The notes: a model not told the origin generated them from the letters alone. 64,000 bases of DNA from an uncultured Clostridium sp. (GCA_964456505.1 CAYWAH010000001.1:37464-101463), one strand, 5' to 3'; counted from the first letter of the stretch, positions 4,291 through 7,827 are shown. Program-made: numbers and translations.

Positions 4291-5072
4291 TAATTACATT
4301 AGTTATTGATCAATATGATGACGGAAAAAATGGAACAACTATGACAGCAAAAAGGCTTGCAGAAACATTAAAAGCGCATGGACATGAAGTAAGGATTTTA
4401 GGTGGAGAGTGCAAAGGCAATGGAAACTTCTATATAACAGGTGTAAATAAAACTCCAATTTTGTACCAGGTTTGCAGAAGCCAAGGGATAATTATTGCAA
4501 AGCCAAGAATATATCGAATATGCAAAGCAATACAACATAGAAAGTTGCGTAAAAGAAATGTAAAAATTTTTTATGATTTAAATGATAATAAAAATGGAGG
4601 AATAAAAACTGCCTTAATGAAAATGAATAAAATTTTAACGTTTATTGTAAATGAACAAAATGAAATTCTGCTGTTAAAAGAAAATGAAAATGACCCACAA
4701 TTCAAAAGATCATTTTGGTATGTTGTAACAGGTGGATGTGAAGAATACGATCTAAATAGAAAAGAAACTGTTAAACGAGAAATCAAAGAAGAAACAGGAA
4801 TAAGTAATATTAGTGATATTTTATATCTAAATTGGATATTCAAATATAATTCACTTGGCATAGAATGCACTGAGTATGTATATATTACATTTGTTAAAGA
4901 AGAAAAGATAACGTTAAACGAAGAAAATATTGATTATCAATGGTGCAATTTAAAAGATTTTATTGAAAAAGTGCAATGGTTTGAAAATAAAGAAGAATTA
5001 TATAAGGTTTTGAGTGAAGCTTTGAAAAAGAAATTATATTTTAAATATGAAAAAATAGAAAAATGTTTATAG
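4287..5072 (+). CDS. Nudix hydrolase carrying an in-frame N-terminal remnant of a GT4-type glycosyltransferase (chimeric, possibly decaying gene)
   Basis: The C-terminal 150 aa carry the Nudix box REIKEETGI. The first 40 aa or so (MIITLVIDQYDDGKNGTTMTAKRLAETLKAHGHEVRIL) look like the N-terminus of a GT4 glycosyltransferase. The following 70 aa are low-information. An internal GGAGG + ATG at 4617 could be the true Nudix start. Confidence 0.5.
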   Translation: MIITLVIDQYDDGKNGTTMTAKRLAETLKAHGHEVRILGGECKGNGNFYITGVNKTPILYQVCRSQGIIIAKPRIYRICKAIQHRKLRKRNVKIFYDLNDNKNGGIKTALMKMNKILTFIVNEQNEILLLKENENDPQFKRSFWYVVTGGCEEYDLNRKETVKREIKEETGISNISDILYLNWIFKYNSLGIECTEYVYITFVKEEKITLNEENIDYQWCNLKDFIEKVQWFENKEELYKVLSEALKKKLYFKYEKIEKCL

Positions 5073-5088
5073 TATCATGGAGAAAAAA

Positions 5089-5430
5089 ATGGAACATATT
5101 TTAAAACTACAACCACAATTTTTTAACTATATAAAAGATGGAACAAAAAGAATAGAATTAAGATTATTTGATGAAAAAAGGCAAAAAATAAATATTGGTG
5201 ACACTATTATTTTTAAAAAAGAGCCAAATTTGGAAGAAATAATGAAAGTTAGAGTAAATGGTATTTTAAGATATAAATCCTTTGAAGAATTGTTTCAAGA
5301 TTTTTCTATAGATATCTTGGCAGATAAATCAATGTCAAAAAAAGAGCTCTTAAGTATATTAGAAGAATTTTATACTCCTGAAAAGCAAGAAAAATATGGT
5401 GTAATTGGTATAAGGATAGAAAAGATATGA
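5089..5430 (+). CDS. Second ASCH-domain protein
   Basis: A GGAG RBS lies 6 nt before the ATG at 5089. The sequence LKLQPQFFNYIKDGTKRIELRLFD plus the length of about 115 aa fit an ASCH/YqfB-like fold. Confidence 0.55.
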   Translation: MEHILKLQPQFFNYIKDGTKRIELRLFDEKRQKINIGDTIIFKKEPNLEEIMKVRVNGILRYKSFEELFQDFSIDILADKSMSKKELLSILEEFYTPEKQEKYGVIGIRIEKI

Positions 5431-6248
5431 ATTTTAGTAAAATAGAGAAAATAATAAAAGATGAGTATAATATTAAGAATATTATCAAAATTGAAAAAAA
5501 TGAAAATTCATCACAGGGAAATGTTTATATTATTTATACACCTACAAAAAATTACGTTGTGAAGAAATATAAAGAATTATCACATGCAAAATCAATGATT
5601 GAAATACATAATTTTCTTGAAGATAACGATTTTAATAGTCCAATAGTTTATAAAAATAACAATAAAATACAATACTCAAAACTAAATGATGATAGTTACA
5701 TTGTTCTATATTCTTTTATGATAGGAAAAGAGTTAGGATATGAAGATAATTCAAAAACACTGGACCTAAATATAGTAGAAAATATCGCAAAAGCTATTAA
5801 AAAATTTCACAATATTACTAGAGAATTTAATAATCAAAACATTGATAATATTCCATTTAAAATAGAAAAAGAAATCTCAAGAAAATCATTATTACATTTT
5901 GATTTAACAAGAAGTAATATATTTAATAATAATGGCAAAATTGGAATAATAGACTTTGACGATGTAAAATTTGGGGCATCAGTATGTGATGTAGCAATTG
6001 CTATTGCAAATTTGTTCTTTTCAAAAAGTAGAGGAATAGATGAAAAAGGTTATAAAAAATTTATTGAAGTTTATTATTCAGATGAAAAAGAAGAAATAAA
6101 AGATATTGAAATTCCTATGATAAAAGACATTGCAATTAAATGGATTAACTATGTGTTAAATACCAATAGCTTTGATGCATCAGACAAAGAAAGCTTTGAA
6201 GTAAGAAAAAAATTAATAGAAATGGAGAAAATAAAAAAGTGTCTTTAA
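5427..6248 (+). CDS. APH-family small-molecule kinase (aminoglycoside/macrolide phosphotransferase-like fold)
   Basis: The start overlaps the stop of the upstream ASCH gene (ATGA). It carries the catalytic loop HFDLTRSNIF (HxDxxxxN), the Mg-binding IIDFDD, and an N-terminal VVKKY lysine. At about 273 aa it is a compact member of the family. Confidence 0.65.
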   Translation: MNFSKIEKIIKDEYNIKNIIKIEKNENSSQGNVYIIYTPTKNYVVKKYKELSHAKSMIEIHNFLEDNDFNSPIVYKNNNKIQYSKLNDDSYIVLYSFMIGKELGYEDNSKTLDLNIVENIAKAIKKFHNITREFNNQNIDNIPFKIEKEISRKSLLHFDLTRSNIFNNNGKIGIIDFDDVKFGASVCDVAIAIANLFFSKSRGIDEKGYKKFIEVYYSDEKEEIKDIEIPMIKDIAIKWINYVLNTNSFDASDKESFEVRKKLIEMEKIKKCL

Positions 6249-7732
6249 TAAGTGTAAATCATTTAACATTTGGATATGATGGAAGCTACAACAATATATT
6301 TGATGATGTTTCTTTTAACATAGACACTGATTGGAAGCTAGGATTAATAGGTAGAAATGGCAAGGGAAAGACCACTCTTTTAAAACTATTACAAGGAAAA
6401 TATGAATACTCAGGAACAATAACAAAAAATGTTGATGTCGATTATTTTCCTTTTGAAGTTTCAAATAAAAATAGAATGGCAATCGAAATTGTAAATGAAA
6501 TTGCTACAAATGTAGAAGACTGGGAAATTATAAAGGAACTAAATTTACTTAATACAGATCCAGAAATTTTATATAGAAATTTCAATTTACTAAGTGGTGG
6601 TGAACAAGTAAAAATTTTCTTAATTAGCTTATTCTTAAAAGAAAATAATTTCTTACTTATTGATGAACCTACAAATCATTTAGACATTGAAACTAGAAAC
6701 AATCTTGCTAATTATTTGCAAAAGAAAAAGGGCTTTATTCTAGTTTCTCATGATAGAATTTTTTTAGATAAAGTTGTAGACCATATAATATCAATAAATA
6801 ATACAAATATAGAAATACAACAAGGTAACTTTTCATCATGGAAAGAAAATAAAGATAAACAAGATAACTTTGAGATGATGCAGAATGAAAAATTACAAAA
6901 AGATATAAATAGATTAGAAATAACATCAAAGAATAATGCAAAATGGTCATTTGAAGCCGAAAAAGCTAAAAGCAAAAAAAACAACCAAGAAACGAAAATA
7001 GATAAAGGTTATGTTGGACATAAAGCTGCAAAAATGATGAAAAGATCAAAAAATTTAGAGCAAAGAATTGATAAATCAATAAATGAGAAAAATACATTGC
7101 TAAAAAATGTAGATAAAAATGAGAAATTAAAAATTGTACCATTAATAAATTCTAGAAATCCTGTTATTCAATTAAATAATTTACAAATAAAATACAATAA
7201 TAATCCAATATTTATGCCAGTTTCATTTGAAGTAAATGATGGAGATCGAGTCGCAATTATTGGCAAAAATGGAGCAGGAAAATCAAGCATTCTGAAATTA
7301 ATACTTGGAGAAAATATAAAGTATAATGGCACATATAAAATTATTAATAATCTAAAAATATCTTATGTACCTCAAAATACTGATAATCTAAATGGAAACT
7401 TAAAAGAATTTGCACAAGAAAATAATGTCAATGAAAGCATTTTTAAAGCAATGCTAGTAAAGATGGGATTATCACAGACAGATTTCGATACTAATATTCA
7501 AAATATGAGCGAAGGGCAAAAGAAAAAAGTTTTGATTGCAAAAAGTATTTCAGAGCAAGCCAATATTTACATATGGGATGAGCCTTTAAATTATATTGAT
7601 ATATTAACAAGAGAACAAATTGAAGATGCAATTTTAATGTACAAACCAACAATCATTTTTGTAGAACACGATGAAAAATTTATTGAAAAAATAGCAACTA
7701 AAATAGTGCAAGTAAAAAATGTAAGACAATAA
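6239..7732 (+). CDS. ABC-F ATPase of the antibiotic-resistance (ARE) Lsa/CplR/Vga type (ribosome protection); GTG start
   Basis: It has two nucleotide-binding domains with Walker A motifs GRNGKGKTT and GKNGAGKSS and signatures LSGGEQ and SEGQKKK. A charged interdomain linker (KMMKRSKNLEQR) is present and there is no transmembrane domain. The 497 aa protein is collinear with Lsa(A), sharing the motifs TDWKLGLIGRNG, FILVSHDR and YIWDEPLNY. Confidence 0.8.
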   Translation: MSLISVNHLTFGYDGSYNNIFDDVSFNIDTDWKLGLIGRNGKGKTTLLKLLQGKYEYSGTITKNVDVDYFPFEVSNKNRMAIEIVNEIATNVEDWEIIKELNLLNTDPEILYRNFNLLSGGEQVKIFLISLFLKENNFLLIDEPTNHLDIETRNNLANYLQKKKGFILVSHDRIFLDKVVDHIISINNTNIEIQQGNFSSWKENKDKQDNFEMMQNEKLQKDINRLEITSKNNAKWSFEAEKAKSKKNNQETKIDKGYVGHKAAKMMKRSKNLEQRIDKSINEKNTLLKNVDKNEKLKIVPLINSRNPVIQLNNLQIKYNNNPIFMPVSFEVNDGDRVAIIGKNGAGKSSILKLILGENIKYNGTYKIINNLKISYVPQNTDNLNGNLKEFAQENNVNESIFKAMLVKMGLSQTDFDTNIQNMSEGQKKKVLIAKSISEQANIYIWDEPLNYIDILTREQIEDAILMYKPTIIFVEHDEKFIEKIATKIVQVKNVRQ

Positions 7733-7766
7733 AAGTAAAAAATCACATAGGAGAAAATAAAATTGG

Positions 7767-7827
7767 ATAAAATTTTAACGTTTATTGTAAAAGAATTTAT
7801 ATTTTAAATATGAAAAAATAGAAAAAT
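7767..7827 (+). repeat. Remnant of a second Nudix gene copy: its 5' (25 nt) and 3' (31 nt) ends fused, direct repeat of 4627-4651 and 5034-5064
   Basis: Positions 7767-7791 are identical to 4627-4651 (start of the Nudix domain). Positions 7797-7827 are identical to 5034-5064 (end of the Nudix gene). About 380 bp between them is deleted. Confidence 0.8.

Follow-up and report, generated by a model that had tools for sequence, protein, structure and literature searches.

A probable relic of a second Nudix gene downstream of an Lsa-like ABC-F gene in a strain-variable islet of an uncultured Clostridium sp.

In a 64,000-nucleotide (nt) stretch of DNA from an uncultured Clostridium sp. (GCA_964456505.1 CAYWAH010000001.1:37464-101463; hereafter the window), the spacer between an Lsa-like ABC-F gene and the following gene, memA, repeats both ends of a NudB-like Nudix gene (N1) located upstream of the ABC-F gene. 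This arrangement raises the questions of what the spacer element is, how two Nudix sequences came to enclose the genes for an ASCH-domain protein (ASCH2), an APH-type kinase and the ABC-F protein, and whether this block can be lost or amplified through the repeats. We conclude that positions 7750-7832 are very probably the non-functional relic of a once-complete second NudB-like gene, the interior of which was lost by a single deletion of 377 nt. The finding is an ordinary one, the remnant of a redundant paralogue in a strain-variable islet, and represents a known phenomenon.

Direct reading and pattern searches identified two exact direct repeats, a 25-mer (ATAAAATTTTAACGTTTATTGTAAA; 25 of 25 positions) from the beginning of the Nudix open reading frame (ORF) and a 31-mer (TTATATTTTAAATATGAAAAAATAGAAAAAT; 31 of 31 positions) from near its end, which follow each other in the relic in the same order and on the same strand as in the ORF (Table 1). 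Comparison of the window with itself hence bears out a first-pass annotation of this DNA, which had described 7767-7827 as the start of the Nudix gene joined to its end, i.e., as an internally deleted second copy in the same orientation that encloses ASCH2, the kinase and the ABC-F gene between itself and the full gene. Each repeat has two copies in the window, also when up to three mismatches are allowed, and no match to either was found in 100 dinucleotide-preserving shuffles. The two objections which that annotation had itself raised, namely that the matches might be inexact or belong to a dispersed repeat, are answered by exact matches with just two copies in the window, and both a dispersed repeat and a chance match were rejected on these counts. 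Without gaps, the similarity extends to 36 of 40 positions on the 5' side (4616-4655 versus 7756-7795) and to 41 of 43 on the 3' side (5022-5064 versus 7785-7827). The upstream flanks (4540-4626 versus 7690-7766) and the downstream flanks (5065-5160 versus 7828-7920) gave local alignment scores no better than those of shuffled sequence, and the similarity of the two Nudix copies is therefore confined to the ORF. Outside the window, no exact match to the 31-mer or to a 26-mer was found in JGI metagenome contigs, and none to the 31-mer in viral contigs.

Other assemblies of the same organism were retrieved by exact-protein look-up. The 61 bases of 7767-7827 are present verbatim in three independent long-k-mer assemblies, represented by contigs L090 (ERZ27252042), L094 (ERZ21942150) and L095 (ERZ27291660), all of which cross both repeats in the order Nudix, ASCH2, kinase, ABC-F and relic, with the latter identical base for base. 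The same bases occur in Logan unitigs common to more than 12 sequencing runs. Unitigs with the ABC-F gene span 5035-7826 (one of them common to 12 samples), those with memA begin at 7797 or 7798, and those with the first ASCH gene of the locus (ASCH1) finish at 5063; such breaks at the repeated 31-mer are expected for k = 31, and these unitigs cannot link its two sides. An assembly artefact was ruled out by the three long-k assemblies and the many unitigs with an identical relic. The 31-bp repeat (5034-5064 and 7797-7827) fragments the k = 31 unitigs in L001-L005, L086-L093, L119 and L121, and fragmentation of this kind can hide the linkage of the ABC-F gene to its chromosomal context in metagenomic resistome surveys.

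The anatomy of the relic is that of a gene with both ends and no middle. Its 5' end consists of a Shine-Dalgarno sequence GGAG (7750-7753), 9 nt, and a TTG start codon (7763-7765), from which the first nine codons (TTG GAT AAA ATT TTA ACG TTT ATT GTA) read M-D-K-I-L-T-F-I-V. The 3' piece holds the last 11 codons in their original frame (L-Y-F-K-Y-E-K-I-E-K-F) and the native stop TAG at 7830-7832. Between them lies the joint TTGTAAAAGAAT, a hybrid of two imperfect 11-mers of the Nudix gene, TTGTAAATGAA (4645-4655) and TTGAAAAAGAA (5022-5032), which have 9 of 11 positions in common, with an exact AAA at the crossover (7789-7791 in the relic). One base of the joint fits neither parent segment, either the T at 7796 or, under an alternative alignment that uses a 5' end like that of the orthologue P0008 (...AATGAATTTAAT), the A at 7792. 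Of the GTAAA/GAAAAAG microhomology to which the first-pass annotation had assigned the junction, the short microhomology stands, whereas its position was just approximate. In Nudix-gene coordinates the deletion measures 377 nt and removed about 83% of the ORF; as 377 mod 3 = 2, it shifted the frame and created an early stop, which leaves a residual ORF of 14 codons that encodes Nudix residues 1-9 followed by five out-of-frame codons. The element thus shows the marks of a gene relic: collinear ends on the same strand, a missing interior, a broken frame, short homology at the joint and native translation signals that were kept. The relic probably has no role at present.

What kind of gene decayed here can be judged from its relatives. 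A protein search of 5.8 billion clusters returned 415 Nudix homologues, with the 261-aa ORF that contains N1 alone in its own cluster and the next match 82% identical. Among the 19 closest homologues, the commonest termini are M-D-K-I-L-T-F-I-V at the N-terminus and E-K-I-E-K-F at the C-terminus, and the DNA of close relatives starts with ...GGTGATAAAA ATG GAT AAA... and ends with ...GAA AAA TTT/TTC TAA. The tail of the relic (...GAA AAA TTC TAG) matches this typical terminus, and both ends of Nudix orthologues from other genomes can likewise be aligned with the relic, for instance the start of the P0008 gene at 34 of 36 positions. Since it retains the family-typical leader, start and stop, the relic is, as far as its sequence tells, a once-complete and ordinary member of the Nudix family. 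Over 56 exact core positions, N1 and the relic agree at all 56, compared with 52 of 56 for the next best of the family members for which DNA was available; both also have the Thr codon ACG, which is ACT in all eight closest relatives with available DNA. On these bases, N1 and the relic are each other's closest known relatives. Since the end segments are conserved across the family, an exact match between them argues less strongly for a very recent duplication than it might seem. Zero differences in 56 slower-evolving positions allow the rough estimate that the lost gene was about 87% or more identical to N1. Nudix family members recur beside APH-type kinases and ABC-F genes in unrelated genomes (L021:10001-14936, L105 and L107), which hints at a functional or co-transfer association.

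The resident copy is the less typical of the two. N1 forms the 3' part of a continuous ORF of 261 codons (4287-5072), which public assemblies call as one protein (P0001); the annotated 261-aa "Nudix" protein is hence a fusion ORF. Its first 110 codons resemble the N-terminus of a family-4 glycosyltransferase at a score below the cut-off (Glyco_transf_4, E = 0.012), have no match in NCBIfam or PDB, and are probably another gene fragment. The sole Shine-Dalgarno sequence of N1, GGAGG at 4596-4600, lies 16 and 22 nt from the candidate ATG codons at 4617 and 4623, and because a well-spaced site is lacking, the Nudix part may be translated within a fusion protein, with coupling to ASCH1 via the ATGA overlap at 4287-4290. 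The C-terminus of N1 (...E-K-C-L) is atypical for the family. With both family-typical ends on the relic and neither on N1, which is moreover fused to an upstream fragment, we take the relic, with moderate confidence, to be what is left of the original gene at its original place and N1 to be a relocated copy. This reverses the polarity implied by the first-pass annotation, which had named the deleted copy the second one.

The most probable history would then run as follows. A second Nudix gene originally lay between the ABC-F gene and memA. Of two gene-sized Nudix paralogues, one would have been redundant and free to decay, and a single 377-nt deletion between the imperfect 11-nt direct repeats inside the gene, by slippage or microhomology-mediated joining, would have left behind the Shine-Dalgarno sequence, the TTG start, the 14-codon ORF and the old 3' end with its native stop. 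N1 would be a relocated copy of the ORF only, with breakpoints within a few bases of the ORF ends (approximately 4613-4627 and 5064/5065), which could have arisen either by tandem duplication of ASCH2-kinase-ABC-F-Nudix and subsequent loss of the first block or as a template-switch copy. A larger segmental duplication was considered and rejected on account of the chance-level flanks and of ASCH1 and ASCH2, which are not recent duplicates (E = 0.056), so that there is no larger duplicated unit. The footprint of a segmental duplication or insertion that had been proposed for this region is thus, in the sense of a unit larger than the gene, not supported: the similarity is limited to the ORF, and the relic has its own Shine-Dalgarno sequence, start and native stop.

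Several points weigh against this history. Just 56-70 nt of the lost gene survive, which bounds its overall identity to N1 only roughly. Simple divergence of the ends of N1 is another possible reason why only the relic has family-typical ends, and a distant relative (L017) ends in ...EKC-stop, so that a tail like that of N1 occurs naturally. Low-level translation or some function of the 14-codon ORF is conceivable from the sequence. No relative with an intact second Nudix copy was found, and the state before the deletion is reconstructed rather than observed. Such a gene would be expected to have TTGGATAAAATTTTAACG or ATGGATAAAATTTTAACG leading a full Nudix ORF and GAAAAATTCTAG at its end. A synteny search found no arrangement of ABC-F gene, Nudix gene and memA in this order; in 80 species-level loci the Nudix identity was 74% or lower and the contexts unrelated, and the contexts of the closest Nudix homologues (82%, 80% and 79% identity) and of the closest ABC-F homologues (87% and 83%) were unrelated as well.

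Table 1 Features of the Nudix relic, the bracketed block and the surrounding islet in the window
Feature	Position	Strand	Basis or remark
5' exact repeat, copy 1	4627-4651	+	Pattern search
3' exact repeat, copy 1	5034-5064	+	Pattern search
5' exact repeat, copy 2 (25 nt)	7767-7791	+	Two copies in the window, none in shuffles
3' exact repeat, copy 2 (31 nt)	7797-7827	+	Two copies in the window, none in shuffles; Logan unitigs break there
Delta-Nudix, probable relic of a second Nudix gene	7750-7832	+	Ends match the family consensus termini
Deletion joint	7785-7796	+	Hybrid of the 11-mers at 4645-4655 and 5022-5032
Residual 14-codon ORF (MDKILTFIVKEFIF-stop)	7763-7807	+	Stop at 7805-7807, created by the frameshifting deletion
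N1, full-length NudB-like Nudix coding region	4617-5072	+	3' part of the continuous 261-codon ORF
110-codon segment fused in frame to N1	4287-4616	+	Weak resemblance to a family-4 glycosyltransferase N-terminus
ASCH2	5077-5430	+	Within the bracketed block (5077-7732)
APH-type kinase	5427-6248	+	Within the bracketed block (5077-7732)
Lsa-like ABC-F	6239-7732	+	Within the bracketed block (5077-7732)
Promoter-like site (TTGACA-17-CATAAT)	7858-7886	+	Best of the region, 11 of 12 matches; 30 nt 3' of the relic and 5' of memA
Strain-variable islet	4095-9068	+	Absent as a whole from most same-species contigs
Haplotype H2 (L124-127, L130)	Window 1-4094, ~100 nt, then 9069 onward		98.7-99.9% identity in most contigs
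Haplotype H3 (L128, L129, L133)	Window 1-4290, 170 nt, then 10138 onward		

The relic and the block are part of a larger variable segment. Same-species contigs were found via an identical DHFR (84 collection blocks listed), and most of these contigs lack the islet, which comprises the 3' part of ASCH1, the glycosyltransferase-like fragment, N1, ASCH2, the kinase, the ABC-F gene, the relic, memA and memB. Strains without the block had been proposed as a comparison, and in these it is the whole 5-kb islet that is absent (breakpoints 4094/4095 and 9068/9069), not the kinase and ABC-F block alone. Strains with an identity of at least 99.8% in the upstream flank that they share (window 1-4094/4290) fall into at least three structural haplotypes, and islet-bearing and islet-free contigs occur in the same samples (L090 and L126 in ERZ27252042, L094 and L131 in ERZ21942150). 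In haplotype H2 (L124:11634-11760 in place of window 4095-9068), ASCH breaks off after residue 64, and the approximately 100 nt that follow code for the C-terminus of a GNAT acetyltransferase and contain an in-frame stop (FR47, E = 5e-4; Acetyltransf_1, E = 5e-3); this piece is a second, unrelated gene relic at the same locus. The side from 9069 onward is more diverged in the H2 contigs L127 and L130 (approximately 92-93% identity).

A second islet-bearing lineage (L094-L096) differs by 18-25 substitutions clustered in 3915-4246 of ASCH1, mostly spaced in multiples of three, and by 0-3 differences over 4247-7955. The near-identity of the latter segment indicates that everything from the glycosyltransferase-like fragment to the relic is inherited as one unit, and the abrupt stop of the cluster at 4246 places a recombination breakpoint at the left edge of the islet core, where ASCH1 ends. 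In other strains, substitutions cluster in 9086-9200 at the start of an M29 peptidase gene, where the changes at 9086/9087 affect the annotated ATG; this gene has diverged by approximately 10% in L094, haplotype H3 has lost most of it, and its protein (343-aa form) was not on record in the look-up. A tRNA-Leu(CAA) gene (3167-3252) lies directly upstream of the variable locus, and no integrase was found near it or the islet. Pfam and NCBIfam scans assigned the main ORFs (at least 110 aa) of 3506-8860 to DUF488, ASCH, Nudix, ASCH, APH, ABC-F and two orphan proteins, with no recombinase domain among them.

Could the two Nudix sequences have come together in another way? That N1 arrived with ASCH2, the kinase and the ABC-F gene beside an older Nudix gene which then decayed, with no duplication in this lineage, appears unlikely but deserves to be taken seriously, as the family occurs in many unrelated contexts, including beside APH and ABC-F genes, as the ABC-F gene is mobile (its 83-87% identical relatives lie beside integrase, Fic and ParAB genes), and as the G+C content of N1 matches that of the block (22-24% for N1, ASCH2 and the kinase versus 28-31% for flanking genes). 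Two independent acquisitions do not account for the 56 of 56 identical positions and the common ACG codon of relic and N1, when the next family member has 82% protein identity; gene conversion would be needed in addition. An improbable origin is a Campbell-type event, in which circular DNA with a Nudix gene and ASCH2-kinase-ABC-F entered a chromosomal Nudix gene by a single crossover and the right copy was later deleted internally. It would yield exactly the observed geometry of direct repeats, it predicts high identity inside the gene and no homology outside, as seen, and the low G+C content of N1, ASCH2 and the kinase relative to their flanks would fit. The same event predicts a native leader on the left copy and a native tail on the right, whereas both family-typical ends, as defined by the family consensus only, sit on the right copy; moreover, the islet contains no replication or recombination gene, and no such circle or plasmid was found in plasmid and phage collections.

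Site-specific integration of the block as an island into the 3' end of a Nudix gene, with duplication of that end as attachment sites attL and attR, is hardly credible: the 3'-end repeat (5022-5064 and 7785-7827) has the geometry of such sites, but the relic also holds the first 29 nt of the gene with Shine-Dalgarno sequence and start, which an attachment-site duplication leaves unexplained, and no integrase or recombinase domain is present in any islet ORF scanned. A broader and quite speculative proposal, to which we give a slim chance, is that the locus next to the tRNA-Leu gene serves this small, AT-rich lineage of gut Clostridia as a site where cassettes are exchanged without a recombinase. 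Units the size of a gene (Nudix, ASCH, GNAT, kinase, ABC-F) would have been inserted there again and again, copied and cut back at ORF boundaries, homology would be provided by conserved ORF ends such as those of this widespread Nudix family, and the Nudix relic would be the footprint of one exchange. The precise breakpoints of N1 at the ORF edges, the glycosyltransferase and GNAT fragments at other joints and the three structural haplotypes of near-identical strains are compatible with such a site and do not require it. Decay of a redundant second gene remains our preferred explanation of the relic.

Whether the repeats provide a way out for the block is a separate question. The first-pass annotation had regarded them as a route to excision or amplification, and an active module, in which the 25- and 31-bp repeats loop out or amplify ASCH2, the kinase and the ABC-F gene, for example under antibiotic selection, has some points in its favour: exact direct repeats bracket the block (unit 5065-7766), and the nearby tandem paralogues memA and memB seem to have undergone recombination in L094. 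Published values of the minimal efficient processing segment are 23-27 bp for the RecA/RecBC pathway and 44-90 bp for the RecF pathway, with an efficiency that falls with distance (PMC12074656). By these thresholds, which are not this organism's own, repeats of 25 and 31 bp are at or just above the RecBC minimum and shorter than the RecF figure, and they are 2.7-3.1 kb apart. With the internal deletion, the homology that flanks the block fell from approximately 450 bp to 25 + 31 bp, a loss of approximately 85%. This loss took away most of the homology needed, so that loss of the block by homologous recombination should be far rarer; rather than making it likelier, the deletion probably stabilized the block.

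The data on strains point the same way. The structure of Nudix gene, block and relic is the same in all islet-bearing contigs recovered, and the strains without the block lack the whole islet, with breakpoints that are not those of the Nudix repeats. Excision would be recognized by the junction GAAGCTTTGAAAAAGAAATTATATTTTAAATATGAAAAAATAGAAAAATTCTAGTAAAATC, composed of the N1-specific ...GAAGCTTTGAAAAAGAAA, the 31-mer and TCTAGTAAAATCAT, and a circle or tandem array by the junction TTGTAAAAGAATTTATATTTTAAATATGAAAAAATAGAAAAATGTTTATAGTATCATGG, composed of the relic-specific ...TTGTAAAAGAAT, the 31-mer and GTTTATAGTATCATGGAG. The recombinant proteins predicted from a crossover at the 31-mer or the 25-mer, of 260 and 126 aa, are both absent from a collection of approximately 15 billion proteins, and no other protein falls into the cluster of the 261-aa ORF. 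Among the contigs and proteins searched there was no single-repeat variant without cargo and no contig with the Nudix gene but without the block. We therefore regard an active module as very unlikely; the resistance-like block is carried on a 5-kb islet that is gained or lost whole among co-occurring strains and, judged by these contigs and proteins, is not shed via the Nudix repeats.

Could the remaining 14-codon ORF have been put to use, as a micro-protein or as a regulatory leader peptide such as those of ABC-F attenuators? Its well-spaced start (GGAG-9 nt-TTG) and its perfect conservation among the sampled strains are what such a function would predict. Strains differ by approximately 0.05% across the segment, which makes conservation uninformative, and the peptide is merely the first nine Nudix residues with five out-of-frame codons. 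The position of the ORF is also wrong: being downstream of the ABC-F gene, the relic is not an ABC-F leader, and the best promoter-like site of memA follows it, so that the relic is upstream of this site and not in the memA leader. The spacer fold is not unusual (z = -1.0), with no terminator or antiterminator fold and no match to an Rfam family. A function of this kind is highly improbable, and the spacer after the ABC-F gene is better described as a decayed gene than as a regulatory element, a distinction that matters little beyond annotation and local history. No terminator-like site was found between the ABC-F gene and memA.

The genes around the relic showed some further variation. Contig L090 lacks 20 nt (7849-7868) between two AAAGTTG repeats, and with them the -35 hexamer of the promoter-like site of memA. 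The tandem paralogues memA and memB (7959-8860) have 36% identity, and no homologue outside this lineage was found in the 5.8 billion clusters; L094 has a single hybrid or memB-like gene, consistent with recombination between their similar 5' ends (7936-7979 and 8388-8431). The ABC-F protein reaches 707.7 bits with the Lsa model of NCBIfam, below the cut-off of 750 bits, and passes the generic model for ribosomal-protection ABC-F proteins. In gut metagenomes it has 7,980 homologues at E <= 1e-100, of which most of the best-scoring are 80-82% identical; the nearest homologues adjoin integrase, Fic and ParAB genes (L115-L117).

Several known systems invite comparison. At the wzy locus of Salmonella Typhimurium, a cargo of similar size (approximately 2.6-2.8 kb) also lies between identical direct repeats that mediate its reversible excision, for which RecA-dependent and RecA-independent routes are discussed (PMC12074656). 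There, however, the repeats measure 113 bp, variants without the cargo occur commonly in the population and experiments have demonstrated the excision, whereas the Nudix repeats, at 25 and 31 bp, are what is left of a decayed gene, and no excised variant was found among the contigs and proteins searched. The bracketed ABC-F gene resembles the Lsa-family clusters on plasmids of Enterococcus and Staphylococcus, e.g., lsa(E), to which its DNA is 65% identical, but differs in that its protein is below the Lsa cut-off and in that it was the sole match in the plasmid and phage collections, none of which carries the surrounding genes or the Nudix repeats.

The islet is similar to the replacement islands found next to tRNA genes, as a 5-kb accessory segment by a tRNA-Leu(CAA) gene is replaced in other strains, with gene fragments at the joints. 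It differs from them in the lack of an integrase and of attachment-site repeats at its ends; the positions of its breakpoints, one within ASCH1 and the other upstream of the M29 gene, suggest that it is exchanged through homologous flanks. The closest parallel is with gene relics. Their formation by RecA-independent internal deletion at short homologies after a gene has become redundant, through replication slippage or microhomology deletion, is a general phenomenon in bacteria. As in other relics, both ends of the parent gene survive in their original order and orientation, a frameshifting deletion between short imperfect direct repeats has taken out the interior, and a redundant intact paralogue is nearby. 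The one departure from the usual case is that the surviving "intact" copy looks relocated, fused to an upstream segment and without a Shine-Dalgarno sequence of its own; nothing essential differs.

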